A stretch of DNA of 64,000 bases, from contig OZ245842.1 in the NCBI GenBank assembly GCA_965228895.1, positions 4,960,001 to 5,024,000 of the forward strand, read 5' to 3'. How positions within the stretch are numbered: the first letter of the stretch is position 1; every line of letters starts with the position of its first letter. Below, in pieces: positions 31,469 to 52,001 of this stretch. The translations under genes were made by a program, and so were the position numbers. Below the pieces are notes generated by a model, which did no database searches, was not told the origin of the DNA, and saw nothing but the letters and a program-made list of their open reading frames with translations. Source of the DNA: Alphaproteobacteria bacterium (lineage in GTDB: Bacteria; Pseudomonadota; Alphaproteobacteria; SP197).

Positions 31469-31954
31469 TCAGGCCCGGTACATGAAATAGCGGCCGGGCG
31501 CGACGCCGTCGGGCAGCGCAAGCGGCTGCCAGGATGACCCGACGAGTTCCTGGTCAGCCAGCGCGACACCGTTCGTGGTCAACAGGTCTCTCGTCGCCTC
31601 CGCCATCCACGTCGCCAGGGCTACGTTGGCCGCTTCGTCGCCGGAGCCGATATCGAAATGGATCATCGCCGCGGGTGCACCAACGCGCGCCAGCGCCTGC
31701 GGCACGGTGTCGCGGAAATCGCCGAGGATCATGTGCTCGTCGTCGGGAATGCAGTCGGGGTGCGCGGCGACCTGACGGTCGAACTCAAAGATTTCGCGTT
31801 CCGGCAGGATCTGCCGCAAATGGTCGAAGGTACGTCCGTTGCCGAGACCGAACTCCAAAACCGGTCCCGGGACATCGGCAATCATTGCGGCGGCAGTCTC
31901 CAGACATGTTCGCTGGGCTTCAAGGCGACGGATCGCGCTATCGAGACGACTCAC
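31469..31954 (-). CDS. Small class I SAM-dependent methyltransferase-like protein
   Basis: MSRLDSAIRRLEAQR start (GTG 31954), VLEFGLGNGRTFDHLR motif I. Confidence 0.8.
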   Translation of the reverse strand: MSRLDSAIRRLEAQRTCLETAAAMIADVPGPVLEFGLGNGRTFDHLRQILPEREIFEFDRQVAAHPDCIPDDEHMILGDFRDTVPQALARVGAPAAMIHFDIGSGDEAANVALATWMAEATRDLLTTNGVALADQELVGSSWQPLALPDGVAPGRYFMYRA

Positions 31955-31978
31955 GGTGTTGTCGTGTAGCTGGCACCA

Positions 31979-32047
31979 CCGGCCCACTCCCCCGCCCGGC
32001 CACCCATGGCAGCATCCTCGGGGTGGCCGGGCGGGGGAGTGGGCCGG
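31979..32047. repeat. Palindromic repeat family 1, copy D (intra-operonic)
   Basis: CCGGCCCACTCCCCCGCCCGGCCACCC-ATGGCAGCATCCTCG-GGGTGGCCGGGCGGGGGAGTGGGCCGG. Confidence 0.9.
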
Positions 32048-32071
32048 AGCCGGGGAAAATGCGGTTGCACG

Positions 32072-32527
32072 TCAGTGCTTCTGCTGCGAGACGGCTTCGC
32101 GCAACTGCGCGGTCGTGCGTTCGACGCGGCGCGCCAGCTCACGCATGATCTCGATCGACATCGACGGGAACTGCGTGACCAGCTGGAAGAACAGATCCTT
32201 CGAAATCATCAACGCTGTCAGATCCGATTTCGCCTTCACCGTCGCCGTTCGCGGCACGTCGCACAGGATCGCCGTTTCGCCGAGAAAATCGTTGGTCTTG
32301 AGTGTCGCGACGGTCACCGGGCCTGTCTCGGTATCGACAATGACGTCGGCTTCACCGTCAATGATGATATAGGCGGAATCGCCCTGGTCACCCTGATGGC
32401 ACAGTTCGTCGCCGGAGGCGAAACTCAGGCGTTCGGCGGTAAAAGCCAGGAGCTTGAGTTTGCTTGGCTCGATCTTGGCGAACAGCGGAATGTTGCGCAG
32501 CAGATCGACATCTTGCTGAAGACTCAT
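32072..32527 (-). CDS. Stand-alone cyclic-nucleotide-binding domain protein
   Basis: LRNIPLF, QGDQGDSAYIIIDG, FLGETAILCDVPRTATVKA phosphate-binding cassette; no HTH. Confidence 0.92.
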   Translation of the reverse strand: MSLQQDVDLLRNIPLFAKIEPSKLKLLAFTAERLSFASGDELCHQGDQGDSAYIIIDGEADVIVDTETGPVTVATLKTNDFLGETAILCDVPRTATVKAKSDLTALMISKDLFFQLVTQFPSMSIEIMRELARRVERTTAQLREAVSQQKH

Positions 32528-32552
32528 GGTCGGGTGCTCCCTTTTTCCTTCT

Positions 32553-35258
32553 TCATTCTGCCGCCATCAGGTCGGCTAGAGTTGACTGACCCTCGGCCAG
32601 ATCCTCAAAACGACCTCTCTCGACAATCTTGCCGCCCTTCATGACGACAACCTGGTCGAACCCGCGCGCCTGGCTTGGCCGGTGCAGGATCCAGATCAGC
32701 GCCCGGCCCTCGCACTCCTTGCGAATGTTTCTCAATATGGTGCTTTGGGCGGCGCCATCCAATGCGGCGGTGGCTTCGGAGAGAATCATGATGTCCGGCC
32801 GTTTCAGGATGGCGCGCGCGATGGCGACCTTCTGACGCTGGGCCGGGGACAGCCGCGAGCCGCCGACGCCGACCTCGAAATCAAGGCCGACCTCGATCAC
32901 GGTCGGCCTCAGGTCGAGCTGAGCAATGACCTCGGAGATCAGCTCGCCGACCTTGGTCTGGGCCTGGGCGCGGCCATAGGCGAGCTTGCCGAACAGAATG
33001 TTGTCCTGAAGCGACGAGGCGGCGTTGTAGAGCGTGCGCTCGAAGAACTCGACCGAACCCTTGAGGTCGTCGGGCAGGTTTTCGGCGAAGAGCGCGCGCG
33101 CTTTCAGGATGCGCGACCGAATGTCCTCGTCGATCAGGCCCAGGCGATGGCGCGAGGGGATCAGCTTGAACGGCAGTGACAACAGCTTCAGCCGCTCGTC
33201 GCCTTCCAGCGCTTTGACACCATCGCGTTCGGCGCGACGAACAATCGCCTGATAGTCCGGCAGGTCGTCGAGCGAGATGAACGCGAACTGAGCGAAGAAC
33301 TCGTGCTCGGGCGGCAGGTCGGCGAACAGCTCGATCATGGTCTGGGCGACCTCGAAACCCATGTCGAGAAGCTCGTCCTCCAGACCTACCTTGCCCAGCG
33401 TCTCCATGACGTAAGCGTTTTCCGCCAGGCGCTCCAAATCAAAGGCATCGCCGACCGGCGTGCCGAACAGGAGGTTCTCGGCCAGCGTCGCATTGGTGTT
33501 GTAGGTGAGCGCATCGAACGGCTCGACCAGTCCGCGATAGGCCGGATCATCCAGGCGCTGCTGCAGCATGCGGCGCGCCTCCAACAACATCTCGGCCGCT
33601 TCCGGACGCTCTTCGGGGTCCAAGGTTCCGCGCAGTCCAAGGTTGTACGCATCCTCGGTCATGTCGGCGACTTCCAGCGCGCGCAAAACCGCCTGGTTCA
33701 AACCCTGCGCGTCGCTGACGCCGGCCGCGGCGTAGTCGATCCATTCGGCGTGTCGGTCTTCCGTCGTGTTGCCCGTGCGCTCCGCTTCCGATTTGGCACG
33801 GGCCATCGCACGTTTCTCATCGGGGTCGTCGGGTTCGCGCGCCTCGAGCTGGGCGTGTTTCAGGCCATAAAGCAGGTTGTCGGCCAGACTGGCGGAGATC
33901 AGGTGGGTCGACCCACCGACAAAACCGATGCGCTGGCCTGTCGACGCCTCGGGCAAACGCGAGGCGTCTTCGCCGCTCATGCGCAGGTTGCCGCCGGTGC
34001 CGTCGATCAGGTGGGCAAGCAGCAGAGCGACTTCGGTCTTGCCGCTTGACGCATCGCCGACAACCGCAATGTGACTGGTCGCGCCGACGTCCAGGGTCAG
34101 CCCGTCGATGATCGAATCACCGTCTTCGGCATATTGCAGATTGCTGGCGGACAGCCCCTGGGTGAACGGTTTGACCTGGTGGTCGTTGCCAAAAACGATG
34201 TCTTCATCGCGCATGCCCGGCGGCGCGAACTGGGTGACCACCTGGTCGTACTTGATCTTCGAATCTTCCCGGATCTGATAGAAGTTCAGCAATTCCTTCC
34301 AGGGCGGCTGCAGGTCCTTGTAGGCGGCCAGAACCGCGACCAGACCGCCGAGCGACAAATCGCCCTGAATGACCAGATAACCGCCGACCGCGTAGAAGAA
34401 GAACGGCGTCAGCTGGGCCAGGAAGTTGTTCAGGAATTTGATGAAGAACTTCTTCCTGAAGATGTCGTAGCGGATCTCGAAGATGCGCTGCATGCGCCAC
34501 GCAAAATCAGCGAGCTCGAAACGCATGGTGTCGTTGGCATGCATTTCCTGGCTCGACTGAACGGTCTCGGAGATGCGTTCGGAGAGCTTGCGCACCTCCT
34601 TGACCCGCGCCTTGCCGAGCAGGTTCACCTGGCGCTGCAGCTTGGGAATGATCCAGCCCTGGATCGGATAGAGCGAAACGGCCGCCGCGCCCATCCAGGG
34701 GTCCTGCATGAAGATGAACACCAGCGCGGTGATCAAAAGGCCGCCCTGATAGAGCGGCAGCGCGATCGAATCACCGATAAAGCCGCCCAATGGTTCGACT
34801 TCCTGGGTGATCATCGGAATGATCTCGCCCGAGCCGACCCGGCGGAAATGGGGCAGCGGAAATCTGAGCACACGGCTGAAAAGCTGATAGCGCAGGCGGC
34901 GCAGCATGCGCTCGCCCAACAGGCCCTTATAGACGTTGATGAACCACTTGAAGCCGCCGTTCATCAGGACCAGGAACAGGAACAGGCCGCAATAGATAGC
35001 CAACAGATGCAGCCGGTCGACGTCGCCAAGCTGGATGCCCATGACTTCCAGATAGCGCGGCACCGAATCCGCCGTTGCCGACTCCCGCATGCTCTCGGGC
35101 ACGTATTCGGGAATGTCGGTAAGAACGTTGTTGACGATCAGCTTGGGAATATCGAGCGAGGCATAATAAAACGGCAACGAAAGCAGCGTGAAACACAGAA
35201 TGAAAATCTGTTGCCGCTTCGAATAGCGAAAGATGAACTTGTAAATTGTACGTTCCAT
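32553..35258 (-). CDS. Fused ABC exporter (TMD plus NBD with large insertion)
   Basis: 6-TM exporter TMD; Walker A GDASSGKT; signature LSPAQRQK; Walker B IMILSE; ~300-aa insertion within the NBD. Confidence 0.88.
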   Translation of the reverse strand: MERTIYKFIFRYSKRQQIFILCFTLLSLPFYYASLDIPKLIVNNVLTDIPEYVPESMRESATADSVPRYLEVMGIQLGDVDRLHLLAIYCGLFLFLVLMNGGFKWFINVYKGLLGERMLRRLRYQLFSRVLRFPLPHFRRVGSGEIIPMITQEVEPLGGFIGDSIALPLYQGGLLITALVFIFMQDPWMGAAAVSLYPIQGWIIPKLQRQVNLLGKARVKEVRKLSERISETVQSSQEMHANDTMRFELADFAWRMQRIFEIRYDIFRKKFFIKFLNNFLAQLTPFFFYAVGGYLVIQGDLSLGGLVAVLAAYKDLQPPWKELLNFYQIREDSKIKYDQVVTQFAPPGMRDEDIVFGNDHQVKPFTQGLSASNLQYAEDGDSIIDGLTLDVGATSHIAVVGDASSGKTEVALLLAHLIDGTGGNLRMSGEDASRLPEASTGQRIGFVGGSTHLISASLADNLLYGLKHAQLEAREPDDPDEKRAMARAKSEAERTGNTTEDRHAEWIDYAAAGVSDAQGLNQAVLRALEVADMTEDAYNLGLRGTLDPEERPEAAEMLLEARRMLQQRLDDPAYRGLVEPFDALTYNTNATLAENLLFGTPVGDAFDLERLAENAYVMETLGKVGLEDELLDMGFEVAQTMIELFADLPPEHEFFAQFAFISLDDLPDYQAIVRRAERDGVKALEGDERLKLLSLPFKLIPSRHRLGLIDEDIRSRILKARALFAENLPDDLKGSVEFFERTLYNAASSLQDNILFGKLAYGRAQAQTKVGELISEVIAQLDLRPTVIEVGLDFEVGVGGSRLSPAQRQKVAIARAILKRPDIMILSEATAALDGAAQSTILRNIRKECEGRALIWILHRPSQARGFDQVVVMKGGKIVERGRFEDLAEGQSTLADLMAAE

Positions 35259-35460
35259 GAAACGGCACGAAGCGGCCTTGCCCCCCCAATTTGGCCTTAT
35301 TTGGCGGCCAGAAAGACTACAGAAGCGACGTGGACCGGTAAACGGGTTCCCAACACCACGTCCTTAGGGCCGCAAACCGGTCAAATGTAAGCCTTTTCGG
35401 CGCTTGCCGCCCTGTGCCATAGTTCGACGCAACTGGGGATGGGGTGATTCGGGAGGCGCC

Positions 35461-36720
35461 ATGATGACGGCAGCCAACAGGCCGCGTGTCCTGATTTACA
35501 GCCATGACAGCTTTGGCCTTGGCCACTTGCGGCGTTGCCGTGCGCTGGCCCACGCGATGGTCGGCGATATCGACAACCTGACCGTTCTGATCCTTTCCGG
35601 CTCGCCGATCATCGGCAGCTTCGACTTCCGCGCCCGTGTCGACTTCGTGCGCGTGCCCGGCGTCATTAAGCTTCGCAATGGCGAATACACCGCGCTCAAC
35701 CTGCTGCTCGATACCGAGCAGACGATGGCGATGCGCGCATCGATCATCAAACACACCGCCGACATCTTCGATCCCGACATCCTGCTGGTCGACAAGGAAC
35801 CGCTTGGCCTGCGCGGCGAGGTCAAGGAAACCATGGAGATGCTGAAGGCGCGCGGCACCAAGCTCATCCTGGGCCTGCGCGACGTCATGGACGATGCGGC
35901 GCTGCTGGCGCCGGAATGGGAACGCAAAGGCGCCATGCCGGCGCTGCGCGACATCTATGACGAGATCTGGGTCTACGGCCTGCCCCAGATCCACGATCCC
36001 CTGGAACACCTCAGCGTGCCGCAATCGGTGCGCCACAAGATGGTCTATACCGGCTATCTCGAACGCTCGGTGCCCCAGGCCCTGCCCGACCAGGGTCTGC
36101 CCGATGGCGTCGAAGAGCCGTTCATCCTAGTCACCACCGGCGGCGGTGGCGACGGCGACCAGTTGGTCGACTGGGTGTTGAAGGCCTATGAAAGCGATAT
36201 GGCGCCGCCGACCCATGCACTGATTGTCTTTGGCCCCTTCATGCAGCCGGAGCTGAAATCGGATTTCCAGGACCGTGTCGACAAGCTGGACAACGTCACC
36301 GCCATCACCTTCGACGCACACTTGGAAACACTGATGGCCCAGGCCGCCGGGGTTGTCGCGATGGGTGGCTACAACACGTTCTGCGAGATCCTGTCGTTCG
36401 ATAAACCGGCGCTCATCGTTCCCCGCCAGGTGCCGCGCCGCGAGCAGCTGATCCGCGCCTCGCGCGCCCAGGAGATGGGCCTGGTCTCCATGCTGACCGA
36501 AGACAGCGCCCAGAACCCCACGGTCATGGCAACCGCAATGCGCCAGCTGACGCAACAGCGCCGTCCCAGCAATGTCGTTGTGCCCGGGCTGCTTGACGGA
36601 CTGGAGAACGTCAACCGCCTGGTCAAGATGCACTTGGCCGAAGGCCGGCACGCGGCGCGCAAGACCAATGCCGCACGCCAGCGCAAACTGACGGTCGCGC
36701 AGGACAGCGCCGTTTCGTGA
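35461..36720 (+). CDS. GT-B glycosyltransferase (GT28/RedA-like)
   Basis: YSHDSFGLGHLRR, LGLRDVMD, VTTGGGGDG, MGGYNTFCE, PRREQLIRA. Confidence 0.85.
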   Translation: MMTAANRPRVLIYSHDSFGLGHLRRCRALAHAMVGDIDNLTVLILSGSPIIGSFDFRARVDFVRVPGVIKLRNGEYTALNLLLDTEQTMAMRASIIKHTADIFDPDILLVDKEPLGLRGEVKETMEMLKARGTKLILGLRDVMDDAALLAPEWERKGAMPALRDIYDEIWVYGLPQIHDPLEHLSVPQSVRHKMVYTGYLERSVPQALPDQGLPDGVEEPFILVTTGGGGDGDQLVDWVLKAYESDMAPPTHALIVFGPFMQPELKSDFQDRVDKLDNVTAITFDAHLETLMAQAAGVVAMGGYNTFCEILSFDKPALIVPRQVPRREQLIRASRAQEMGLVSMLTEDSAQNPTVMATAMRQLTQQRRPSNVVVPGLLDGLENVNRLVKMHLAEGRHAARKTNAARQRKLTVAQDSAVS

Positions 36721-36758
36721 CACGTGTTTTTATTTGGTCCGTTCACACGGGGCCGGGG

Positions 36759-36827
36759 CCAGCCCACTCCCCCGCCCGGCCACCCATGGCAGCATCCTCG
36801 GGGTGGCCGGGCGGGGGAGTGGGCTGG
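36759..36827. repeat. Palindromic repeat family 1, copy E (intra-operonic)
   Basis: CCAGCCCACTCCCCCGCCCGGCCACCC-ATGGCAGCATCCTCG-GGGTGGCCGGGCGGGGGAGTGGGCTGG. Confidence 0.9.
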
Positions 36828-36836
36828 TGATGTCCC

Positions 36837-38084
36837 TTGGAGCGCGAGCCCTCTAAGACAGACCGGGTCGCCTTCCTTCTGAAAGGCTACCCCCGGCTCA
36901 GCGAGACGTTTATCGCCCAGGAGATCCTGGCGCTGGAGCAACGCGGTCTGGCAATCGAGATCGTCTCGCTGCGCCACCCGACCGACACCAGCACCCATCC
37001 GGTGCATGACGAGATCACCGCACCCGTTACCTATCTGCCCGAATATCTCTATCAGGAGCCGCGACGCGTCTTCGCGGCGTGGCTGAAGGCACGCCGCCTG
37101 CCCGGTTACGGCCAAGCGTTCCGAACCTGGGTCCGTGACCTCCGGCGCGACAGGACGCCGAACCGCATCCGGCGCTTCGGCCAGGCTTGTGTCGTCGCCG
37201 CCGAGGTCGCACCGCGGGTCAAACACCTGCACGCGCACTTTCTGCACACGCCCGCCTCGGTCGCCCGCTACGCCGCCATGATGACCGGGCTACCGTGGAC
37301 CTGCTCGGCCCATGCCAAGGATATCTACACGAGCCCGAACTGGGAGATCAGCGAGAAGCTCGGCGATTGCGGCTGGCTGGTCACCTGTACCGCCGCGAAC
37401 CGCGACCATCTGAGCGACCTGGCGCCCGATCCCGACAAGGTCGCGCTGGTCTATCACGGCCTTGATCTCGGCCGCTGGCCGGCGCCGGAACGCCGCGACG
37501 GCGTTCGCGATGGCAGCGATGCCGACAACCCCGTCCGCCTGGTTTCCGTCGGCCGCGCGGTCGAGAAAAAGGGCTATGACGACCTGCTGGCCGCGCTAGC
37601 CCTGTTGCCCAAGGATCTTGCCTGGCGCCTGGATCACATCGGCGGCGGGCCCCTGCGCGCGAAGCTGCAACAGCTTGCTGAGCAGATGGGGCTTCAGGAC
37701 CGCATCACCTGGCACGGCGCCCAGGCTCAGGACGCGGTCCGGCGCGCTTACCGGGACGCCGACCTTTTTGTGCTGGCGCCGCGCATTGCCGCCGATGGCG
37801 ACCGCGACGGCCTGCCCAATGTCATGATGGAGGCGCAAAGTCAGGGCCTGGCGGCGGTCACGACCGCTGTATCGGCTGTGCCCGAATTGATCAGCGACGG
37901 CGTTAATGGGCTGTTGAGCCCACCTGGTGACCCCACGGCTTTGGCAACATCGCTGGCGCGCCTGATCGGCGATCCCGCTCTGCGGCGACGCATGGGAGAC
38001 GCCGGCCGTCAGCGGGTCGTAGACGACTTCGCCATGGAACATGGGATCGATGATCTGGCTGCCCGTTTCGGTCTGGGCCAGTAG
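36837..38084 (+). CDS. GT4 glycosyltransferase (WcaL/RedB-like)
   Basis: KGYPRLSETFI, HAHF, SAHAKDI, GRAVEKKG, DGLPNVMMEA. Confidence 0.9.
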   Translation: MEREPSKTDRVAFLLKGYPRLSETFIAQEILALEQRGLAIEIVSLRHPTDTSTHPVHDEITAPVTYLPEYLYQEPRRVFAAWLKARRLPGYGQAFRTWVRDLRRDRTPNRIRRFGQACVVAAEVAPRVKHLHAHFLHTPASVARYAAMMTGLPWTCSAHAKDIYTSPNWEISEKLGDCGWLVTCTAANRDHLSDLAPDPDKVALVYHGLDLGRWPAPERRDGVRDGSDADNPVRLVSVGRAVEKKGYDDLLAALALLPKDLAWRLDHIGGGPLRAKLQQLAEQMGLQDRITWHGAQAQDAVRRAYRDADLFVLAPRIAADGDRDGLPNVMMEAQSQGLAAVTTAVSAVPELISDGVNGLLSPPGDPTALATSLARLIGDPALRRRMGDAGRQRVVDDFAMEHGIDDLAARFGLGQ

Positions 38085-38093
38085 GATCGCACC

Positions 38094-41695: not shown

Positions 41696-42198
41696 GCGAA
41701 CACCGCTATGAAACCCGCGTCCTGACAGGCGATTACATCCGCTCCAGCGCCGGTGTCCTCTTGACCTGGGGACCATTGTTGATCGTTGAGGCCGCGCCCA
41801 TCATGGTTTACATCCTTGGTGCGCTGGGGGGCGTTTTTGCGGTCTTCGGGATCAGAACCCTGATCCGTCAGATGACCACCATTGAGGTTTCCGAGGACGG
41901 GATCCATGCCAGAGGTCCCGCCGGGAAGGCTGTGTTGTGGGATGACTTGAACAGTATGAAGCTCGCTTACTATTCCACCCGGCGAGATCGGCAACGAGGC
42001 TGGATGCACCTGACCGTCAAGGACGGTGCGAAGAAACTGGGTGTCGATTCTTCGATCAGCGATTTCGACACGATCGCCAGCGCCGCGCTGCGGGCCGCCA
42101 CGGCGCGCCGACTGAGCTTGTCCGACGTCACCCGGTCCAACTTTGAAGCCCTGGGTCTAACGCCCGATCCCCATGGCCTGCCGGATGACCACCTGTGA
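41692..42198 (+). CDS. Hypothetical 2-TM membrane protein with PH-like soluble domain
   Basis: ATGA overlap after GGAGG; two hydrophobic segments, then a beta-rich region; coupled to both neighbours. Confidence 0.7.
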   Translation: MSEHRYETRVLTGDYIRSSAGVLLTWGPLLIVEAAPIMVYILGALGGVFAVFGIRTLIRQMTTIEVSEDGIHARGPAGKAVLWDDLNSMKLAYYSTRRDRQRGWMHLTVKDGAKKLGVDSSISDFDTIASAALRAATARRLSLSDVTRSNFEALGLTPDPHGLPDDHL

Positions 42199-44075
42199 GC
42201 AGCCTGGTCGATATCCGTAATCTGGGCGTCGAGTTCGAAGTCGGCGACGGCCGGGTCAAAGCGGTCCGCGGCGCCAGCTTCACCATCCGGCAGGGACGAA
42301 CCCTGGCGCTGGTCGGCGAGTCCGGATCGGGCAAGACCGTGATCTCCCAGGCGATCATGCGCATCCTGCCGCAGAACGCCCACATCACCCGCGGCCAGAT
42401 CCTGTTCAACGATCCCGACATGGACGGTCAGGTCACCGACATCGCCGCGTTGCCACCCGACGGCAAACGCATGCGCGGCATTCGCGGCGGACGTATCTCG
42501 ATCATTTTCCAGGAGCCGATGACCTCGCTCTCGCCGCTGCACACGGTCGGTGATCAGGTCTCCGAGGCGCTTCACCTTCATCGCAACTGCGATCGCCAGG
42601 AAGGCAAGGAGCTGACCATTTCGATGCTGCGTCTGGTCGGCTTTCCCGACGCCGAGAAAGCCTGGCGCAGCTATCCCTTCGAACTCTCCGGCGGTCTGCG
42701 GCAGCGCGCCATGATCGCCATGGCGCTGGTGTGCCGGCCCGCCCTTCTGGTCGCCGACGAGCCGACCACGGCCTTGGATGTCACCATTCAGGCGCAGATT
42801 CTGAAACTGCTGGACGATCTGCAGGACGAGCTCGGCATGGCGGTGCTGATGATCACCCACGATTTGGGCGTCGTCGCCAACGTCGCCGAAGAGGTGGTCG
42901 TCATGTACCACGGCGAGGTGATGGAGAAGGGCTCGCTGGACGACATCTTCCGCCACGCCGAACATCCCTACCTCAAAGCCCTGTTGCGCGCCGTTCCGCG
43001 TTTCGACATGAAACCGGGCGAGCGTCTGGTGCCGCTGCGCGAGGTCAAACATGCGCATGCCGAGCGCCACCAAAATCGCAGACCCTGGCCGGAGAATGAC
43101 GACCGGCCGCTGCTGAAAGTCAGTCATCTGACCAAGACGTTCAGCATTCGCAAATCGGAATGGCTGGGCGGCAAGAAGGTCGAGCATCTGGCGGTCGACG
43201 ACATCAGTTTCGATGTGCGGCGCGGCGAATGTCTGGGACTGGTCGGCGAGTCCGGTTGCGGCAAGACGACGACCAGCAAGATGATCATGAAGGCGCTGAC
43301 GCCCGACAGCGGTGAGTTGGTCTATAACGACCGGGGCACCGAGATCGACATCCGGACACTCTCCGGTCCCGCGCTGTTCGACTTCAGGCGCGATGTTCAG
43401 TTCATCTTTCAGGACCCCTTCGGATCGCTGAACCCGCGCATGACCGTCATGGACATCATTTCCGAACCGCTGATGATCCATAACGTTTGCAGCGGTCAGG
43501 AGCGCGCCGACCGGGTTATGGAGCTGATGCGGCTTGTCGGTCTGGACGTCCGCCACCTGCGTCGCTACCCACACAGTTTTTCCGGCGGTCAGCGGCAACG
43601 CATCGGCATCGCGCGCGCCCTGGCGCTGGAACCCGACCTCCTGATCTGCGACGAGCCGGTGTCGGCGCTCGACGTATCGATCCAGGCGCAGATCCTGAAT
43701 CTCTTGAAGGATCTGCAGGACGAACTGGGTCTGACCTATCTCTTCATCTCGCACAATCTGGCCGTGATCGATTACATGGCCGATCGCATCGCGGTGATGT
43801 GCGCCGGGCGTCTGGTCGAGCAGGCGGAACGGCGCGAGCTGTTCGAGAACCCCGTCCACCCCTACACCCGCGCGCTTCTGGCCGCCGTGCCGAAACCCGA
43901 CCCCAACCACAAGCTCGACCTGACCGCGCTGATGGCCGGGCGCGCCAGCAACCCGGACGCCTGGCCCGAGCCCTTCACCGTCTCCGCCAACGCCAAGCTC
44001 GACATGATCGATATCGGCAACGGTCACCTGGTGCGCGCCAGTCGCGCGCCGAGCCCCGAGGAGCTTGCCGCGTGA
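42195..44075 (+). CDS. Dpp/Opp-type ABC transporter, double ATP-binding subunit
   Basis: GESGSGKT and [16 protein letters not shown] and [16 protein letters not shown]. Confidence 0.95.
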
Positions 44076-45979
44076 TCCGCTGCCTGACCGGCCTTGTGGT
44101 CCTTGCATGGCTCGCCGTATCGCCGGCCATGGCAGAAGACCTCATTGAACCGCCCTATTGGGCCGACGCGGTCGCGGCCGGCGAATTGCCGCCGGTCGCC
44201 GAACGGGTCACCGGGTCACCGCTGGTCGTCACCTTGGATGGCGAGCGCACCGTCGGCACCTATGGCAGCGAATGGCAGATGCTGGTCAACCGGGTCAAAG
44301 ACACCCGCCTTCTGGTCGTGTTCGGCTATGCACGCCTGATCGCCTACAACACCGACCTGGACCTGGTGCCCGACATCCTGGAGAGCTATGAGGTTGAGGA
44401 TGGGCGCATCTTTACGTTTCATCTGAGGCCCGACCACCACTGGTCAAACGGCGATCCGTTTACCGCCGAGGATTTTCGTTACTGGTGGGAAGACGTCGCG
44501 ACCCACCCCGATCTATCTCCCTCCGGCCCGCCCAAGCTGATGACCGTCGATGATGAGCTGCCGCGTTTCGAGGTGATCGACGAACTGACGGTCCGTTACA
44601 CGTGGTTGAAGCCCAACCCCGACTTCCTGCCGGCCCTGGCGAGCGCCGCGCCGCTCTTCATCTACCGGCCAGCCGAATACATGAAGCAGTATCACCCCGA
44701 CTACGGCGACATCGACTGGATCAACGCCCAGGTCGAGGAAGCCGGCAAGTCGAGCTGGGCGTCCCTGCATAACGGTGTCGACAATCTCTACAAGTTCGAC
44801 AACCCGGAACTGCCGACCCTGCAGCCGTGGATGATCACCAACGCGGCCCCGGCGCAGCGGTTTATCGGCGTGCGCAATCCGTATTTTCACAAGATCGATC
44901 AGGCCGGGCATCAGTTGCCCTACATCGACCGCATCATCATGAACGTGGTTGACAGCAAGCTGATCCCGCTGAAGACCTGGGCCGGCGAATCCGACCTCCA
45001 GGCGCGCGGCCTGTCGTTCAACGACTATACGTTCCTGAAGGAAGGCGAAGGCCACAACGACTACCAGGTGCGCCTGTGGCGCACGGTGCGCGGCTCACAG
45101 TTGGCGCTCTATCCCAACCTGAACGTCAACGACCCGGTGTGGCGCGACCTGTTGCGCGACGTCCGGTTCCGCCGCGCTTTGTCGCTCGCCATCAACCGCC
45201 ATGAGATCAACCAGGTCATCTATTATGGCCTGGGCATCGAGGGCAACAACACGGTCCTGCCGTTGAGCCCGCTCTATGACGAGAGCTATCGCAGCCAGTG
45301 GGCCCAGTTCGATCTGGACGAGGCGAACCGCCTGCTCGACGAGATCGGCCTGACCGAACGCGACAGCCAGGGATATCGTCTGATGCCGGACGGACGGCGG
45401 CTGCAGATCATTGTCGAGACCGCCGGCGAAGATCCGCAGGAGTCGGACATTCTCGAGCTGATCCACGACAGTTGGCGCGACGCCGGCATCAAGCTCTTCA
45501 CCAAGCCGATGCAGCGCGAAGTCTTGCGCAACCGCGTCTTCGCCGGCGAGACCGTGATGTCGATCTGGTTCGGCCTGGAGAACGGCGTGCCGACGCCGGA
45601 GATGACGCCAGCGGAATTCGCGCCGACCAGCCAACAACTCCTGCAGTGGCCAAAGTGGGGTCAGTTTTACGAGACGTCGGGCGCCAGCGGCGAGCCGATC
45701 GACATGGCCGATGCCGAGCGGCTGATGGAACTGGCGCACGATTGGCAAAGTGCCGGCAGCGAGGCCGAACAAGAGCAGATCTGGGAAGAGATCTTGCAGA
45801 CCTACGCCGACGGTGTTTACTCGATCGGTTTGATCGCCGGCATCTTTCAGCCAGTCGTCGTTTCCGATCGTCTGCACAATGTGCCCGAGGAAGCCATGTT
45901 CAATTGGGATCCGGGCAGTCAGTTCGGCATCTACGAACCCGAGACCTTCTGGTTCACCGACGGTAGCAACGGGCGGTAG
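44072..45979 (+). CDS. Family-5 ABC substrate-binding protein (peptide/oligosaccharide type)
   Basis: Signal peptide, GELPPVAERV, FHLR..H.WSNGDPFTAED, NPYFHKID.AG.QLPYIDR, FRRALSLAINR. Confidence 0.92.
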   Translation: MIRCLTGLVVLAWLAVSPAMAEDLIEPPYWADAVAAGELPPVAERVTGSPLVVTLDGERTVGTYGSEWQMLVNRVKDTRLLVVFGYARLIAYNTDLDLVPDILESYEVEDGRIFTFHLRPDHHWSNGDPFTAEDFRYWWEDVATHPDLSPSGPPKLMTVDDELPRFEVIDELTVRYTWLKPNPDFLPALASAAPLFIYRPAEYMKQYHPDYGDIDWINAQVEEAGKSSWASLHNGVDNLYKFDNPELPTLQPWMITNAAPAQRFIGVRNPYFHKIDQAGHQLPYIDRIIMNVVDSKLIPLKTWAGESDLQARGLSFNDYTFLKEGEGHNDYQVRLWRTVRGSQLALYPNLNVNDPVWRDLLRDVRFRRALSLAINRHEINQVIYYGLGIEGNNTVLPLSPLYDESYRSQWAQFDLDEANRLLDEIGLTERDSQGYRLMPDGRRLQIIVETAGEDPQESDILELIHDSWRDAGIKLFTKPMQREVLRNRVFAGETVMSIWFGLENGVPTPEMTPAEFAPTSQQLLQWPKWGQFYETSGASGEPIDMADAERLMELAHDWQSAGSEAEQEQIWEEILQTYADGVYSIGLIAGIFQPVVVSDRLHNVPEEAMFNWDPGSQFGIYEPETFWFTDGSNGR

Positions 45980-45984
45980 CGGGC

Positions 45985-46983
45985 ATGATCAACTACATCG
46001 CCCAGCGCCTGTTGATCATGGTGCCGACCTTGATCGGCATCAGCCTGATCACCTTCATCATCATCCAGCTGCCGCCGGGCGACTTTCTGTCGACCATGAT
46101 CGCCGAGTGCGAGGCCCAGGGCGAAAGCTCGTGCGCCGATCAGATCGAGATCTATCGCCAGGAGTTCGGCCTCGATAAGCCGGTCTGGCAGCAATACCTG
46201 TTCTGGGTCGGCGGCTTGCTGCAGGGCGATCTTGGCCTGAGCTTCGAATACAACAAGCCGGTCAATCAGGTGATCGGTGAAAGCCTGCTACTCACGATCA
46301 TCGTGTCGGCGGCGACCATCGTCTTCACGTGGGTTGTCGCCTTTCCCATCGGCGTCTATTCGGCCACCCACCAGTACTCCTGGGGCGATCACGGCCTGAC
46401 CTTTATCGGTTTTCTGGGTCTGGCAACGCCGAACTTCCTGTTGGCGCTGGTCCTGCTGTTCCTGGCCAATGTCTGGTTCGGCACGTCGATCGGCGGCCTG
46501 ATGGATCCGGAATATCTCGACCAGCCGTGGAGCTGGGCCAAGTTCCTCTCTGTCCTCGAACACCTATGGATCCCGGTGGTCGTGATCGGCACGTCCGGCA
46601 CCGCCGGCCTGATCCGGCGCCTGCGCGCCAATCTGCTGGACGAGTTGCAGAAACAATATGTCGTCACCGCGCGCGCCAAGGGCCTGTCGCCGGGCAGGGC
46701 GCTCATGAAGTATCCGCTGCGCATGGCGCTCAACCCGTTCATCGCCGACATCGGCAACCTCTTGCCCCAGGTCATCTCCGGCGCCGTCATCGTCTCGGTC
46801 GTGTTGTCGCTGCCGACCACGGGCCCGATCCTGCTGCGCGCGCTGCAGACCCAGGACATGTACCTCGCCGGCTCGTTCCTGATGTGCCTGGCGCTGTTGA
46901 CCGTGATCGGCGTCTTGATTTCCGATCTTCTGCTCGCCGTGCTCGATCCACGCATTCGGCTGGCTTCGGGGGCCGGTCACTGA
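45985..46983 (+). CDS. ABC permease (DppB/OppB-like)
   Basis: FGLDKP, GDLGLS, YVVTARAKGL (EAA-like), SDLLLAVLDPRIR. Confidence 0.93.
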   Translation: MINYIAQRLLIMVPTLIGISLITFIIIQLPPGDFLSTMIAECEAQGESSCADQIEIYRQEFGLDKPVWQQYLFWVGGLLQGDLGLSFEYNKPVNQVIGESLLLTIIVSAATIVFTWVVAFPIGVYSATHQYSWGDHGLTFIGFLGLATPNFLLALVLLFLANVWFGTSIGGLMDPEYLDQPWSWAKFLSVLEHLWIPVVVIGTSGTAGLIRRLRANLLDELQKQYVVTARAKGLSPGRALMKYPLRMALNPFIADIGNLLPQVISGAVIVSVVLSLPTTGPILLRALQTQDMYLAGSFLMCLALLTVIGVLISDLLLAVLDPRIRLASGAGH

Positions 46984-48158
46984 TGAGCGACACCACCCGC
47001 AAGGACGACGATACGATCGAACGTTTCGTCTCCGACAAACCCTTCGATCCCTATTCCGTCGAGCAGCTGACGCCCGAACAGGAACGCTTCTACATGGCGT
47101 CCCAGTGGAAGCTGATGTGGTGGAAGTTCCGGCGCCACCAGATCGCCGTGATTTCAGGCGTGCTGCTGCTGCTGACCTTCTTCTCGATCCTGATCTCGGA
47201 GATCCTGGCGCCCTACAATCTCGCCACCCGCCACACCGACTTCATCTACGCGCCGCCCCAGGCGGTCCACTTTTTCCATGACGGATCGTTCGTTGGCCCG
47301 TTTGTCTACGGCCTCAACTACGAACTCGACATGGACACCCTGCAGCGGGTCTATACGTCGAACACCCAGGACGTGCAGCCGATCCGCTTTTTCTGTCTGG
47401 GCGATGAGTATGAGTTCTGGGGCGCAGTTCCCATGCGCTTCCACATCGTATGCCCGGCCGAGGACGGCCAGATGTTCCTGTTGGGCACCGACCGGCTGGG
47501 CCGCGACATGCTGTCGCGCATCATCTATGGCGCGCGTATCTCGCTCACCGTCGGCCTGATCGGCATCACCATCAGCTTCGTGCTGGGCATCATCCTGGGC
47601 GGCCTGTCGGGTTACTACGGCGGCTGGATCGACACGCTGGTCCAGCGCCTGATCGAGATCATCCGCAGTTTCCCGGAACTGCCGCTATGGATGGCGCTGT
47701 CGGCGGCCTTGCCGGTGACCTGGAGTCCGCTGCTGATCTATTTCGGTATCACCATCATTCTGGGCCTGTTCGACTGGACCGGGTTGGCGCGCGCGGTGCG
47801 CTCAAAGCTCCTGTCGTTGCGCGAGGAGGATTTCGCGACCGCGGCCGTCTTGATGGGCGCGACGCCCAAGCGCGTCATCTTCCGCCACCTGTTGCCCAGC
47901 TTCACCAGTCATCTGATTGCCAGCGCCACCTTGTCGATCCCGGCCATGATCCTGGGCGAGACGGCGCTGTCGTTCCTGGGGCTCGGCCTGCGCCCGCCAA
48001 TCACCAGTTGGGGCGTGCTGCTGAACGAGGCGCAGAACATCAACGTCGTCGCGCTCTATCCCTGGCTGATGCTGCCCGTGGTGCCGGTCATCATCGTGGT
48101 GCTCGCCTTCAACTTTCTGGGCGACGGCCTGCGCGACGCCGCCGATCCCTACAAATAG
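46983..48158 (+). CDS. ABC permease (DppC/OppC-like)
   Basis: LGTDRLGRDMLSRIIYGARISL, ETALSFLGLG, FNFLGDGLRDAADP. Confidence 0.93.
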   Translation: MSDTTRKDDDTIERFVSDKPFDPYSVEQLTPEQERFYMASQWKLMWWKFRRHQIAVISGVLLLLTFFSILISEILAPYNLATRHTDFIYAPPQAVHFFHDGSFVGPFVYGLNYELDMDTLQRVYTSNTQDVQPIRFFCLGDEYEFWGAVPMRFHIVCPAEDGQMFLLGTDRLGRDMLSRIIYGARISLTVGLIGITISFVLGIILGGLSGYYGGWIDTLVQRLIEIIRSFPELPLWMALSAALPVTWSPLLIYFGITIILGLFDWTGLARAVRSKLLSLREEDFATAAVLMGATPKRVIFRHLLPSFTSHLIASATLSIPAMILGETALSFLGLGLRPPITSWGVLLNEAQNINVVALYPWLMLPVVPVIIVVLAFNFLGDGLRDAADPYK

Positions 48159-51902: not shown

Positions 51903-52001
51903 CCGATCCTCCAGATCCCCGCCATGGCCATTATACGCAGGCCAAAGGCTGACGCGCCGTCAAAGGCCCGTGTCGGGCGTGTGAGGCCCCAGAGGAGCGG
52001 T

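Follow-up and report, generated by a model that had tools for sequence, protein, structure and literature searches.

The rhizobial Nod-factor pathway (NodC, NodB, NodS and NodIJ) combines glycosyl transfer, de-N-acetylation by a CE4 enzyme, SAM-dependent methylation and ABC-type export to produce a small modified oligosaccharide. The early steps of mycothiol and bacillithiol synthesis use a GT4 glycosyltransferase (MshA or BshA), a phosphatase (MshA2) and a deacetylase (MshB or BshB). We compared these pathways with a gene cluster in a 64,000-nucleotide stretch of an alphaproteobacterial genome (contig OZ245842.1), hereafter the window, in which all coordinates are counted. The locus follows the same logic as the Nod-factor pathway, including a cytoplasmic enzyme of the CE4/NodB fold and a dedicated ABC-type export step, which we infer here. 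However, it lacks a GT2 chitin-oligosaccharide synthase, an acyltransferase and an ABC-2 exporter of the NodIJ kind, and its deacetylase fails the Pfam CE4 model. Its own components are four glycosyltransferases of the GT-B type, a phosphatase, an importer coupled to them and a cyclic-nucleotide (cNMP) sensor. The triad of GT4 enzyme, phosphatase and deacetylase known from mycothiol and bacillithiol is encoded by neighboring genes of the locus, but the deacetylase has the CE4 fold and is not of the LmbE type, a Cys ligase and an acetyltransferase are both absent, and three further glycosyltransferases are present.

A reading of the window from its sequence alone (the sequence-only reading) had named a putative redA/redB-type rhizobial cluster as similar; a homologous cluster does exist on rhizobial megaplasmids. 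It is uncharacterized and is found on S. meliloti pSymB (~815-852 kb), on Shinella pShin-02 and on Rhizobium and Ensifer chromids. Identities to the locus proteins are 48-70% for the importer, 53-54% for GT28a, 51-56% for GT4a, 40-42% for GT28b, 41-46% for GT4b, 42-50% for the cNMP-binding protein, 37% for the ABC-like protein and 30-35% for the deacetylase (DAC), and only Shinella has a match to the methyltransferase MT17 (41%). A cyclase and an MBL-fold gene are further members of the S. meliloti cluster; the ABC-like gene of S. meliloti 1021 is divided between two ORFs. The rhizobial clusters differ in their changed gene order, in the absence of the histidine phosphatase and in extra genes for a polysaccharide lyase, nucleotide-sugar dehydrogenases, an epimerase, an FkbM methyltransferase, an MscS channel and a DUF3095 protein. 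The lyase, dehydrogenases and epimerase point to a uronic-acid polymer in those bacteria.

Layout and conservation of the gene cluster

All 14 genes named in the sequence-only reading lie at the coordinates it gave or only a few bases from them, and the coordinates bear out its right arm as a single tightly coupled operon of 11 plus-strand genes. The features are:

31469..31987, minus strand, Methyltransf_17 SAM methyltransferase (MT17), final left-arm gene (PF12692, E=7e-55)
32072..32527, minus strand, stand-alone cyclic-nucleotide-binding protein, 151 aa (PF00027, E=7e-20)
32553..35258, minus strand, ABC_membrane and ABC_tran protein of exporter fold, 901 aa (PF00664, PF00005)
35259..35460, no strand, divergent intergenic region, 202 nt (sequence read)
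35461..36720, plus strand, GT28a, GT-B glycosyltransferase with a GT1-like fold (Glyco_tran_28_C, E=4e-08)
36837..38084, plus strand, GT4a, GT4 glycosyltransferase (Glycos_transf_1, E=5e-33)
38094..39209, plus strand, GT4b, GT4 glycosyltransferase (Glycos_transf_1, E=4e-26)
39206..39796, plus strand, HisP, phosphatase of the histidine-phosphatase superfamily (His_Phos_1, E=2e-34)
39793..40938, plus strand, GT28b, GT-B glycosyltransferase (Glyco_tran_28_C, E=4e-13)
40931..41695, plus strand, DAC, cytoplasmic CE4/NodB-fold deacetylase-like protein, 254 aa (predicted fold, motifs)
41692..42198, plus strand, Memb, small membrane protein (hydrophobic stretch; alternative GTG start at 41647)
42195..44075, plus strand, fused double ABC ATPase of a family-5 importer, DppD/DppF-like (two ABC_tran and oligo_HPY)
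44072..45979, plus strand, SBP, large family-5 (cluster C) periplasmic binding protein (SBP_bac_5, E=9e-61)
45985..46983, plus strand, PermB, importer permease (BPD_transp_1)
46983..48158, plus strand, PermC, importer permease (BPD_transp_1, OppC_N)
50529..51902, minus strand, membrane-anchored class III nucleotide cyclase (Guanylate_cyc, E=3e-13, residues 262-413)
52002..52853, minus strand, MT24, Methyltransf_24 SAM methyltransferase (PF13578, E=1e-11)
52850..53683, minus strand, MBL-fold hydrolase, Lactamase_B_2 (PF12706, E=5e-24)

Overlaps of 4 nt join GT4b to HisP, HisP to GT28b, Memb to the ATPase and the ATPase to SBP, and probably also DAC to Memb, depending on where Memb starts. GT28b and DAC overlap by 8 nt and PermB and PermC by 1 nt, while short gaps separate GT4a from GT4b (9 nt) and SBP from PermB (5 nt). 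The sole real gap in the right arm, 116 nt between GT28a and GT4a, is occupied by a REP-like palindrome. In the divergent region, the one promoter-like motif seen (TGTGCCATAGT, 35413-35423) lies upstream of GT28a and is kept in the window and five close loci, and a Shine-Dalgarno GGGAGG precedes the GT28a ATG at 35461. The 8-mers GCCATAGT and GGCATAGT occur in 8/41 and 6/41 intergenic regions, respectively. No CRP-like box scoring at least 8 of 10 was detected in the 12 intergenic regions tested. As noted earlier from the sequence, Wzx, Wzy, Wza, a priming glycosyltransferase and sugar-nucleotide genes are missing from the scanned predicted genes of the whole window; PCP/OPX, ABC-2 exporter and acyltransferase genes were not found in the window either.

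We profiled gene neighborhoods with DAC as the anchor, keeping 80 loci with 10-kb flanks, 47 of which were full-length (at least 20.6 kb). Among the matches listed, 589 of 599 pattern-matched stretches encode a DAC relative. GT28a, GT4a, GT4b and GT28b each accompany the anchor in all 47 full-length loci, a recurrence of the glycosyltransferase/deacetylase core that puts the arrangement far beyond chance. HisP occurs in 42/47 and the small membrane protein in 41/47, and the importer is similarly frequent (ATPase and SBP 44/47 each, permeases 45/47). The ABC-like protein (38/47) and the cNMP-binding protein (37/47) follow, then MT17 (26/47, often just beyond the fetched flank), MT24 (18/47) and the cyclase (15/47), which MT24 adjoins. 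As a contrast, the window-specific neighbors NaPi and SDR were found in 0/47 and 2/47 full-length loci.

The ABC-like or cNMP gene is missing from the fetched 10-kb flank in 9-10 of the 47 full-length loci, several of them because insertions push the genes past the flank edge; in four loci (L063, L051, L064 and L072) other genes occupy their place. Gene order is mostly preserved across loci; loci of gamma- and betaproteobacteria, like those of rhizobia, have the modules in rearranged positions. GT28a is the most conserved enzyme (49-85% identity across loci), and among all locus proteins conservation is highest in the permeases (reaching 98% identity in L001). The genes thus co-occur in other genomes, and the cluster is one conserved unit across many bacteria, so far uncharacterized: we found no published description of it in the literature searched.

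The span given in the sequence-only reading was right for its genes, but the conserved unit is bigger and takes in the cyclase/Methyltransf_24/MBL-fold operon at 50529-53683. In many loci the cyclase lies directly downstream of PermC. The N-terminal ~215 residues of the cyclase look hydrophobic, with about six transmembrane helices by eye, not computed. MT24 precedes the cyclase on the same strand, and the MBL-fold gene overlaps the MT24 start by 4 nt. Homologs of the MBL-fold protein, whose nearest solved relatives (RNase Z and ELAC1) are weak matches, occur in 26/80 loci, near the right-hand flank limit.

Enzymes of the biosynthetic arm

The description of GT28a as GT28-like is correct for its Pfam GT28_C domain, but its predicted fold instead resembles GT1 small-molecule glycosyltransferases. 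The top Foldseek matches to its AF2 model (pLDDT 84.5) were CalG4, CalG3, CalG1, plant UGTs, OleD and YjiC (E 1e-13 to 1e-11, TM 0.5-0.59). GT28b is a distant paralog of GT28a (24% identity over the full length) that shares its N-terminal motif G-x-G-H-L-R-R-C and has weak PDB matches to CalG4 (1e-4) and MurG (5e-4). The best NCBIfam match of GT4a is EpsE (164 bits against a cut-off of 400). GT4b is most similar in the PDB to MshA (1e-16), followed by PimB', BshA, GlgM and SPS, a likeness that is generic because GT4a matches the same structures. No glycosyltransferase of the locus reached a curated NCBIfam cut-off, all scores falling far below, and none is an ortholog of a described LPS or EPS enzyme, in agreement with the sequence-only reading. 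Acceptors cannot be read from GT-B folds, which leave room for MurG-like, lipid-linked ones.

HisP has an RH..., E and H144 core, and its closest relatives of known structure are alpha-ribazole-phosphate phosphatase and PhoE (2e-09). One locus (L072) lacks HisP and has a HAD-domain protein beside GT28a instead. DAC can be called a CE4 deacetylase by its predicted fold and motifs only, with no Pfam match at E<=0.01. Its AF2 model (pLDDT 93.8) retrieved CE4 deacetylases by Foldseek (E ~1e-7, TM 0.5-0.63), and its invariant residues include D27, D28, D29, H79, H83, H169, D171, W175, H213 and H214. No hydrophobic N-terminus is visible in DAC or in the other locus enzymes checked. MT17 had no NCBIfam match. 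The small membrane protein, which matched neither Pfam nor NCBIfam, has one hydrophobic stretch near residues 20-60, read by eye as two transmembrane helices. Its nearest named Atlas clusters are bPH_6 and bPH_7 (at 0.93), and a bacterial PH-like domain is possible and offers a lead.

Membrane protein, nucleotide sensor and importer

The left-arm membrane protein had been called an ABC exporter. It does have the exporter fold, but it is not a canonical ATPase, as the Mg-ATP ligands are gone in 46/48 homologs. PF00664 covers residues 80-310, and PF00005 is split (385-487 and ~750-897) by an insert of ~260 residues between Walker A and the signature motif. The insert, present in at least 3334 homologs, carries internal repeats (z=8.8; as high in 0/300 shuffles). 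Among the homologs, the Walker A Ser/Thr and the Walker B Asp are each found in 2/48 and the Q-loop Gln in 8/48. The catalytic Glu (41/48) and the basic Walker A residue (46/48) are mostly retained, so the degenerate nucleotide-binding domain (NBD) may still bind ATP. The best curated matches were the Type IV exporters MsbA, HepA, the glucan exporter NdvA/ChvA and PglK, which share the transmembrane family PF00664, and the locus protein keeps an NBD remnant. The NBD-less SbmA/BacA transporters are a further comparison. The locus protein differs from the Type IV exporters in its scores (130-185 bits against cut-offs of 600-870), the lost Mg-ATP ligands, the repeat insert and its pairing with a cNMP-binding protein.

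The gene for this cNMP-binding protein adjoins the ABC-like gene in 37/47 full-length loci. PF00027 is its only domain, with no HTH, and the phosphate-binding cassette GE..AIL..VPRTATV is kept (G83 and R93 invariant; E84, T94 and A95 at least 90%). A single ORF in one genome (L075) joins ABC_membrane, ABC_tran, cNMP_binding and GGDEF domains, and close relatives of the sensor are fused to Methyltransf_17 (PF12692; P0250) and to a cyclase domain (P0248). The proposed link to cyclic nucleotides is therefore sustained by adjacency, fusions and the nearby cyclase (15/47), but control looks post-translational and directed at the membrane protein, because the sensor lacks a DNA-binding domain. Complex prediction for the two proteins, with alignments built for this analysis, gave a score of 0.52 (best of 3 controls, 0.00) and weak support, as the mark is passed by 116/157 solved complexes and 2/215 mismatched pairs, but passing scores of 0.60 or less comprise only 18 of the 157 solved complexes and both passing mismatches. 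At least 93% of the contacts are shared between runs, with a partner pLDDT of at least 80. A similar gene pair is known from bacteriocin-type export cassettes (TIGR03896), where a cNMP-binding protein gene also lies beside an ABC exporter. The sensor matches TIGR03896 at E=4e-12 (46 bits against a cut-off of 161), but the locus lacks the HlyD partner, peptidase domain and precursor peptide of those cassettes.

The importer ATPase is most similar in NCBIfam to GsiA (625 bits against a cut-off of 1077). The SBP has a signal-like N-terminus ending in AMA, and its PDB matches are T. maritima 'OppA' (5ipw, 2e-78), SPH1118 (2e-65) and AgpA (9e-24). The match to 5ipw is closer than that to SPH1118, the nearest binder with a defined ligand. 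SPH1118 is the pectin-oligosaccharide binding protein of a Sphingomonas sp. A1 ABC importer, and it hardly bound yeast extract or tryptone in DSF (PMC9314435). It is likewise a large cluster-C family-5 binder annotated as oligopeptide-binding, and the match is nearly full-length. In one pairwise HMMER alignment, on which the residue mapping rests, the locus SBP keeps the stacking Trp (W594 to W612; W in 51/61 homologs), the Phe (F592 to F610; Y or F in 56/61) and one Arg. At three of the four Arg sites, however, it has Val, Asp/Ser/Asn or Asp/Glu: carboxylate-binding R57 corresponds to V82 (R in 0/61), R438 to D454 (R in 6/61) and R496 to E510 (D or E in 40/61). An acidic ligand is unlikely because three of the four carboxylate-holding arginines are replaced. 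By sequence and residues, the SBP resembles oligosaccharide binders more than it does classical peptide binders, as the sequence-only reading would have it.

Competing explanations and proposed function

A cell-envelope polymer or glycolipid (exopolysaccharide, adhesin glycan or aminoglycolipid) could be the product rather than a small glycoside, with the ABC-fold protein flipping or exporting it and the importer salvaging fragments. We consider this unlikely but deserving of serious weight. It would suit the best curated matches of the ABC-like protein and of GT4a (the EPS enzyme EpsE), all far below cut-offs, the Pfam grouping of both GT-B enzymes with MurG-type GT28_C, the lyase, dehydrogenases and epimerase added in rhizobia, and a nearest ligand-defined binding protein that takes polysaccharide fragments. 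GGDEF domains also turn up in Azospirillum and in L075, as an insertion in the locus or a fusion to it. GGDEF association is usual for biofilm polysaccharides. However, the window has no priming glycosyltransferase, Wzx/Wzy, PCP/OPX, ABC-2 exporter or acyltransferase, and the extra families that recur in the 80 loci include none of these. The first matches of the GT28a model are small-molecule GT1 enzymes, the phosphatase step and its non-orthologous HAD replacement fit soluble phospho-intermediates, and translational coupling ties the importer to the biosynthetic genes.

The flow could also run in reverse, the importer bringing in an external peptide, oligosaccharide or antibiotic-like compound that the glycosyltransferases modify, in the manner of macrolide-glycosyltransferase self-protection, before the ABC-fold protein expels it. 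OleD, MGT and CalG enzymes have the GT1-like fold, the importer ATPase and permeases resemble Gsi, Yej and Opp systems for peptides and peptide antibiotics, and no part of the locus is better conserved than the importer. We find this improbable: the TIGR01426 macrolide-glycosyltransferase matches of both GT-B enzymes are weak (only 22-29 bits against a cut-off of 260), four glycosyltransferases, a deacetylase, a phosphatase and two methyltransferases exceed the needs of detoxification, the SBP retains sugar-stacking aromatics, and the synteny stays steady across free-living marine, soil and plant-associated lineages, which favors an endogenous product.

It is very improbable that the cyclase and the cNMP-binding protein are a Pycsar-like anti-phage pair merely beside a glycan locus. 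The cyclase does score higher against PADLOC PycC (95 bits, E=1e-27) than against Pfam Guanylate_cyc (50 bits), and the sensor matches the nucleotide-binding part of the PycTIR/effector models (2e-16, PADLOC), but among class III cyclases and among CNB domains such cross-matches follow from common descent. In the window, 18 kb separate the two genes, and the sensor has no TIR or transmembrane effector domain and shows conserved synteny with the ABC-like protein, to which it is fused in one case. The other locus proteins have no PADLOC match, bar a weak generic NBD match, and the whole set is order-conserved across families and classes, unlike defense islands. That unrelated exporter, glycosyltransferase-cluster and peptide-importer operons lie side by side by chance, as the common families of each module and their shuffling in gamma- and betaproteobacteria and rhizobia might suggest, is the least probable reading and already contradicted by the co-occurrence data, since the families stay together despite shuffling (47, 44-45 and 37-38 of 47 full-length loci), start and stop codons overlap across the glycosyltransferase/importer boundary, and fusions tie the sensor to the ABC-like protein, MT17 and a cyclase.

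We tentatively read the whole locus, at somewhat less than even chances, as one unit of three modules for glycoside assembly, gated release and recapture. The GT1-like model, the lack of polymer machinery, the lack of hydrophobic N-termini in the enzymes checked and the HAD stand-in for the phosphatase suggest small-molecule-type chemistry. Gene content, coupling, co-occurrence, folds, motif states and domain fusions are direct observations. We infer in what order the reactions run, how large the product is and what it is, which way the ABC-like protein transports it, that this protein is gated, and that the compound exported is the one imported. In the cytoplasm, the two GT1-like and two GT4 enzymes would build a short glycoside or oligosaccharide by at least four glycosyl transfers. 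One step would pass through a phosphorylated intermediate, the phosphate being removed by the histidine phosphatase. The CE4-like enzyme would de-N-acetylate one N-acetyl-hexosamine, and one or two SAM methyltransferases would add methyl groups. The product would cross the inner membrane via the ABC-exporter-fold protein, whose NBD has lost the residues coordinating Mg-ATP and gained a triplicated helical segment. The cNMP-binding protein may partner and gate it in response to a nucleotide, probably cAMP, from the nearby membrane-anchored class III cyclase. The importer would then recapture the product or a fragment of it through a binding protein that resembles oligosaccharide binders and may be tuned to a non-acidic, possibly cationic sugar.

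Gene organization of the locus

Listing the open reading frames (ORFs) and their Pfam matches bore out the gene map that had been read from the sequence alone, with a left arm and an 11-gene right arm diverging from a 202-nt gap. The locus is bigger than that reading stated, as an operon with genes for an MBL-fold hydrolase, a methyltransferase and a cyclase lies downstream of the right arm.

Genes of the locus, in window coordinates
31469-31987, minus strand: MT17 (Methyltransf_17; Pfam), left arm
32072-32527, minus strand: cNMP protein (cNMP-binding domain only, 151 aa; Pfam), left arm
32553-35258, minus strand: ABC-like protein (ABC_membrane and ABC_tran, 901 aa; Pfam), left arm
35461-36720, plus strand: glycosyltransferase GT28a
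36837-38084, plus strand: glycosyltransferase GT4a
38094-39209, plus strand: glycosyltransferase GT4b
39206-39796, plus strand: His_Phos_1 phosphatase
39793-40938, plus strand: glycosyltransferase GT28b
40931-41695, plus strand: DAC, deacetylase-like protein (254 aa, no Pfam match)
41692 or 41647 to 42198, plus strand: small membrane protein
42195-44075, plus strand: fused double ATPase of the importer
44072-45979, plus strand: SBP_bac_5 binding protein (SBP) with a signal-like N-terminus
45985-46983 and 46983-48158, plus strand: two importer permeases
50529-51902, minus strand: membrane-anchored class III cyclase, downstream operon
52002-52853, minus strand: MT24 (Methyltransf_24), downstream operon
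52850-53683, minus strand: MBL-fold hydrolase, downstream operon

From GT4a onwards, the right-arm genes are at most 9 nt apart or overlap by 1-8 nt. The sole larger gap, 116 nt between GT28a and GT4a, is occupied by a 63-nt GC-rich palindrome (REP-like, perfect and intergenic) with four copies in the window (16362-16424, 18615-18677, 31982-32044 and 36762-36824). The two copies within the locus are identical, and the other two vary with changes mirrored on both arms, so that the hairpin is preserved. The only matches in an Rfam scan of 28000-54000 (E ≤ 1) were to miRNA families, all sub-threshold, and turned out to be copies of this palindrome. The window has a G+C content of about 64%, with no compositional break at the locus. 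A scan for sigma-70 promoters and terminators gave counts not above those in shuffles, and no CRP box was found in the 12 divergent regions searched.

Among the scanned predicted genes of the window there was no Wzx, Wzy, Wza, priming transferase or sugar-nucleotide enzyme, as the sequence-only reading had claimed. Neither a priming phosphoglycosyltransferase, a flippase/polymerase or ABC-2 pair, nor PCP/OPX proteins were detected in this gene set, and the same EPS/LPS/capsule hallmark genes were absent from the recurrent extra families of the 80 related loci described below. Elsewhere in the window, two overlapping ORFs in different frames with one EamA domain each (16451-17421, minus strand) possibly represent one EamA transporter gene with a frameshift. 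Downstream of the locus there is a gene for a Lon-like (LonB/LonC-type AAA) protease (57504-59975), and a tandem pair of Sulfotransfer_1 genes is found at 62027-63709 (minus strand); a TPR-sulfotransferase is also near the cluster in related locus L064.

Conservation and carriers

Scoring of 8000 candidates gave 4967 relatives of the anchor protein DAC at E ≤ 0.001, none with a Pfam domain. We scanned one genome per species with the DAC alignment and obtained at least 599 pattern matches, 589 of those listed encoding a relative. The best 80 loci of these at least 589 relatives were retained, all window proteins were compared with them by tblastn, and genes were counted in the 47 loci with complete 10-kb flanks. 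Each of the four glycosyltransferases occurs in all 47 loci, the importer permeases in 45, and its ATPase and SBP in 44 each. They are joined by the His-phosphatase (42/47), the small membrane protein (41/47), the ABC-like protein (38/47), the cNMP protein (37/47) and MT17 (26/47). Two neighbours specific to the window, an SDR gene and a Na/Pi transporter gene, were found in two and none of the 47, respectively. The neighbourhood check proposed from the sequence alone thus indicates that the genes belong together.

The cyclase (15/47) and MT24 (18/47) directly follow the last permease in many loci, and the MBL gene was detected in 26 of the 80; these three counts are lower bounds, because the genes fall close to the flank limit. 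Several left-arm genes scored as absent were displaced beyond the fetched flank by insertions such as an MFS gene (L010-L026) and a PAS-GGDEF gene (Azospirillum), and in L051, L063, L064 and L072 other genes occupy the left-arm position. The Azospirillum insertion is a PAS-GGDEF diguanylate cyclase gene between GT4b and GT4a (L038:1729-2730; also L035, L037, L041 and L060), and the left and right arms of these loci are also rearranged. At the short-flanked edges of the 80 loci, an OmpR-type regulator (55684-56373 in the window) recurs on the right in nine and an EEP-family gene (28086-28892) on the left in six. The N-terminus of the EEP protein presumably resembles exodeoxyribonuclease III. 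The gene was set aside as mere synteny.

Carriers among the best 80 loci are mainly Rhodospirillales-type Alphaproteobacteria (Azospirillum, Inquilinus, Thalassospira, Virgifigura and many MAGs). In a number of MAGs from Gamma- and Betaproteobacteria the same genes occur in shuffled order, and the sequences of these MAGs fall at two separate positions in a quick GT28a tree. MAGs labelled Mycobacteriaceae and Flavobacteriales (L076 and L078) also carry the locus; these are likely mis-binned contigs, because in the quick tree the L078 GT28a groups as sister to a sequence from Alphaproteobacteria. When plasmids were searched with right-arm DNA at near identity, only the permease genes matched (72-74%), and the Azospirillum chromosomal locus was absent from the plasmid collection. 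An Azospirillum oryzae plasmid (L081:3549-4793) has a solitary GT28a gene, 66% identical, beside Tn3 and IS6 transposases and with no other genes of the locus nearby.

A protein search of plasmids with GT28a returned 275 records, mainly Rhizobium and Sinorhizobium chromids. The regions with gene annotation come from pShin-02 of Shinella and from a pSymB-type replicon of S. meliloti; the S. meliloti 1021 copy was located as well. The annotated regions encode orthologues of the importer, GT28a, GT4a, GT28b, the ABC-like protein, the cNMP protein, GT4b and DAC at 30-70% identity. Of these two regions, only that of Shinella has an MT17 match, and neither has the His-phosphatase. Two nucleotide-sugar dehydrogenases are added in both, along with an epimerase in Shinella and a cyclase, polysaccharide lyase, FkbM methyltransferase, MBL-fold gene and MscS channel in S. 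meliloti. All PGAP names of the rhizobial cluster proteins are generic. The sequence-only reading had pointed to a similar rhizobial cluster; this holds in substance, as the genes are orthologous, but its label "redA/redB" was not confirmed. In its excerpted text, the Clr-regulon study concerns another pSymB cluster, nodP2-smb21248 (PMC5498481).

S. meliloti 1021 pSymB has the ABC-like gene in two pieces, as overlapping ORFs read in different frames (L084:26685-27398 and 27148-29436), and the gene table of S. meliloti strain Ak57 does not list it; the Shinella copy is intact (903 aa). The S. meliloti gene may be a pseudogene. In a gammaproteobacterial MAG (L034:2303-4858) and in S. meliloti (L083:1178-3298), the cluster also includes a gene for an MscS-type mechanosensitive channel, which hints at an osmotic connection.

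Biosynthetic enzymes and the coupled importer

The protein DAC had been called a CE4 deacetylase. CE4 enzymes have Asp-Asp and H-x3-H motifs and a later His. The AF2 model of DAC (pLDDT 93.8) has the predicted NodB-type deformed (beta/alpha) barrel fold, and its best Foldseek matches in the PDB are CE4 enzymes (3rxz, 3qbu, 5lgc, BA3943, Bc1960 and ArnD; E 2e-7 to 1e-5, TM 0.5-0.63). Invariant in 25 sequences are D27, D28, D29, H79, H83, H169, D171, W175, H213 and H214; we take the Asp triplet, the H-x3-H pair and the later His, Asp and Trp to be the CE4 metal and catalytic residues. The assignment therefore stands for fold and motif residues but not at the level of curated sequence models, as no Pfam model matched at E ≤ 0.01 (Polysacc_deac_1 was unmatched and DUF2334 appeared only at 0.069) and no NCBIfam model matched. 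The protein has no visible hydrophobic N-terminus and should therefore act in the cytoplasm.

The GT28a model is a GT-B fold (pLDDT 84.5) whose first matches are GT1 natural-product and plant UDP-glycosyltransferases; single-sequence and profile searches of PDB sequences returned nothing. GT28b is a paralogue (24% identical) with a common N-terminal motif, G-x-G-H-L-R-R-C. GT4a and GT4b match identical retaining GT4 structures (MshA, BshA, SPS, GlgM and PimB'). A MshA-like reading of GT4b was downgraded, since GT4a matches the same structures, and these matches do not indicate the acceptor. The best NCBIfam scores were far from the cut-offs: 164 against 400 bits for GT4a (EpsE), 73 against 274 for GT4b (BshA), 38 against 196 for GT28a (MJ1255) and 42 against 250 for GT28b (MurG). 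By these scores, none of the four enzymes belongs to a described glycosyltransferase orthologue group, and no protein of the locus reached an NCBIfam cut-off.

In the phosphatase, the superfamily residues (Arg-His, Glu and the second His) are retained. Locus L072 has no His-phosphatase; next to its GT28a is a protein of 672 aa that includes a HAD-phosphatase domain (L072:3098-5116). This protein is a possible non-orthologous replacement, which hints that the pathway requires dephosphorylation. Atlas gave only a bPH lead for the small membrane protein.

The importer has the family-5 (cluster C) set of SBP_bac_5, two BPD_transp_1 permeases and Dpp/Opp-type ATPases with oligo_HPY. Curated SBP models for peptides, nickel and opines all scored far under their cut-offs, the best being Opp4A (82 against 650 bits). 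The nearest solved proteins are T. maritima 'OppA' (5ipw, 2e-78), the oligogalacturonide binder SPH1118 (2e-65), the alpha-galactoside binder AgpA and a chitin-oligosaccharide binder; SPH1118 is the closest of these with a defined ligand. Excerpts of the SPH1118 study state that this protein binds unsaturated trigalacturonate and barely binds yeast extract or tryptone (PMC9314435). We mapped its ligand contacts onto the SBP through one HMMER alignment and counted residue states in 61 orthologues.

SPH1118 ligand contacts, the aligned SBP residues and their states in 61 orthologues
W594 (stacking): SBP W612; Trp in 51/61
F592 (stacking): SBP F610; Tyr or Phe in 56/61
R466: SBP R482; Arg in 53/61
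R57: SBP V82; Arg in 0/61
R438: SBP D454; Arg in 6/61
R496: SBP E510; Asp or Glu in 40/61

From these aligned positions, we infer that the ligand is probably a carbohydrate that is not polyanionic and possibly carries positive charge. A cationic carbohydrate would fit a de-N-acetylated amino sugar.

The ABC-like protein and cyclic nucleotides

The ABC-like protein had been read as an ABC exporter. It does have the order of transmembrane and nucleotide-binding domains of a type IV exporter (PF00664, E = 1e-19, then PF00005, E = 1e-13, in two stretches), but it lacks the Mg-coordinating residues of Walker A and B and falls below the curated exporter cut-offs (MsbA 185 against 602 bits, NHLM ABC1 176 against 853, HepA 175 against 725). 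The Walker A Ser/Thr is kept in only 2 of 48 homologues, with Asp in 24 and Glu in 11, and the Walker B Asp likewise in 2, with Asn in 26 and Ser in 17. The Walker A basic residue is Lys in 28 and Arg in 18. The Q-loop Gln is kept in 8 and replaced mostly by Pro (25) or Ala (13), while the H-loop His is present in 31/48 and the catalytic Glu in 41/48.

The Pfam match to the nucleotide-binding domain is in two pieces about 260 residues apart. The insert has two extra copies of the post-Q-loop segment ("..L.ENLLFG.."); comparison of residues 560-720 with 720-800 gave z = 8.8, a score not reached in any of 300 shuffles. Atlas returned no named family for the insert, and proteins with this insert form a family of at least 3334 members, none with more than a generic annotation. 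The locus encodes no second half-transporter, so a homodimer would have two degenerate sites.

The adjacent cNMP protein retains a complete phosphate-binding cassette (GE.AIL..VPRTATV). Its 151 residues match PF00027 only, with no further domain in the alignment and no CRP/FNR-type C-terminal helix-turn-helix; the CRP model aligns residues 23-143 to profile positions 15-137 of 214. Domain fusions connect this protein with further components of the locus. In a Rhodospirillales MAG (L075:6457-9960), one ORF of 1167 aa combines ABC_membrane, ABC_tran, cNMP_binding and GGDEF. In a set of 12 longer sensor relatives, Methyltransf_17 and a class III cyclase domain each occur once as the fusion partner, and MFS permeases twice. 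The fused close relatives (P0248, P0250, P0256 and P0257) are each single-member clusters and may be assembly or gene-calling artefacts.

Complex prediction for the sensor with residues 345-901 of the ABC-like protein scored 0.52 against 0.00 for the best of three controls, which is "weak support": the mark was reached by 116/157 solved complexes and 2/215 mismatches, and scores of at most 0.60 that reached it came from only 18/157 solved complexes and from both passing mismatches. The runs share at least 93% of contacts, with partner pLDDT of at least 80 (author-made alignments).

A source of nucleotide is suggested by the downstream cyclase (PF00211, E = 3e-13), in which FVDIRGFT, DKFLGDG and EYTVIGD are seen. 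Class III cyclases have metal-binding Asp residues and a purine-specifying Lys in the cyclase homology domain. By these rules, the Lys of DKFLGDG and the Thr of EYTVIGD suggest that ATP may be the substrate, although the PADLOC PycC model scores higher on this protein than the Pfam model does.

Proposed function and its alternatives

The best reading, held tentatively and at somewhat short of even odds, is one of assembly, gated passage and recapture. A modified glycoside or oligosaccharide would be assembled in the cytoplasm and pass through the pseudo-ATPase ABC-fold protein under cNMP gating. The coupled importer would then recapture it, with the downstream cyclase operon supplying the nucleotide.

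The main alternative, to which we give somewhat less weight, has an envelope polymer or glycolipid as the product, with salvage of its fragments. The polysaccharide lyase and dehydrogenases of the rhizobial versions speak for this, as do the GGDEF links. A route in which a compound is imported, modified and expelled is improbable. The PADLOC PycC model outscores the Pfam model on the cyclase, which raises a Pycsar-like pair; a Pycsar system would place PycC next to a CNB effector with a TIR or TM killing domain, and although the models match, the genes here are 18 kb apart, no effector domain is present and the synteny is stable and housekeeping-like, so that a defence role is very unlikely. 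Chance adjacency of modules is more remote still.

A more specific form of the assembly-and-recapture reading is doubtful, ranking between the envelope alternative and the import-modify-expel route. The ABC-like protein would be a bacterial transporter of a new type, a homodimer ("pseudo-ABC") in which the dead, triplicated nucleotide-binding domain serves as both docking and regulatory platform for a separate cAMP receptor. The second messenger, not ATP, would switch the release of a cationic (de-N-acetylated, methylated) oligosaccharide, and recapture by its own importer would make this a shared extracellular signal or public good.

All component families are already known. Our search of the literature, with subscription journals and supplements outside its scope, found no paper on the cluster; the excerpted Azospirillum brasilense cyst transcriptome names glycosyl transferases in general terms only (PMC6159551). 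New relative to the literature found are the gene combination, the degenerate triplicated nucleotide-binding domain with a cNMP partner, and biosynthesis translationally coupled to an importer.

The interest of the locus lies in its breadth, its tractable plant-associated carriers and its unusual transporter. At least several hundred species-level genomes carry it, members of the anchor family number in the thousands, and no protein of the locus bears a functional name from a curated model. The system occurs in hundreds of Alpha-, Gamma- and Betaproteobacteria, plant-associated Azospirillum and rhizobia among them; A. brasilense and the rhizobia are genetically tractable and agriculturally relevant. 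Alphaproteobacteria encode many cyclases with few known targets. If the assembly-and-recapture reading is true, the locus would provide a new glycoside class, secreted or recycled, an output through which cAMP-type signalling in Alphaproteobacteria acts directly and not by transcription, and an ABC-exporter fold that gave up canonical ATP hydrolysis. If the product is instead an envelope polymer, this would still be an undescribed export route without Wzx/Wzy or an ABC-2 system.
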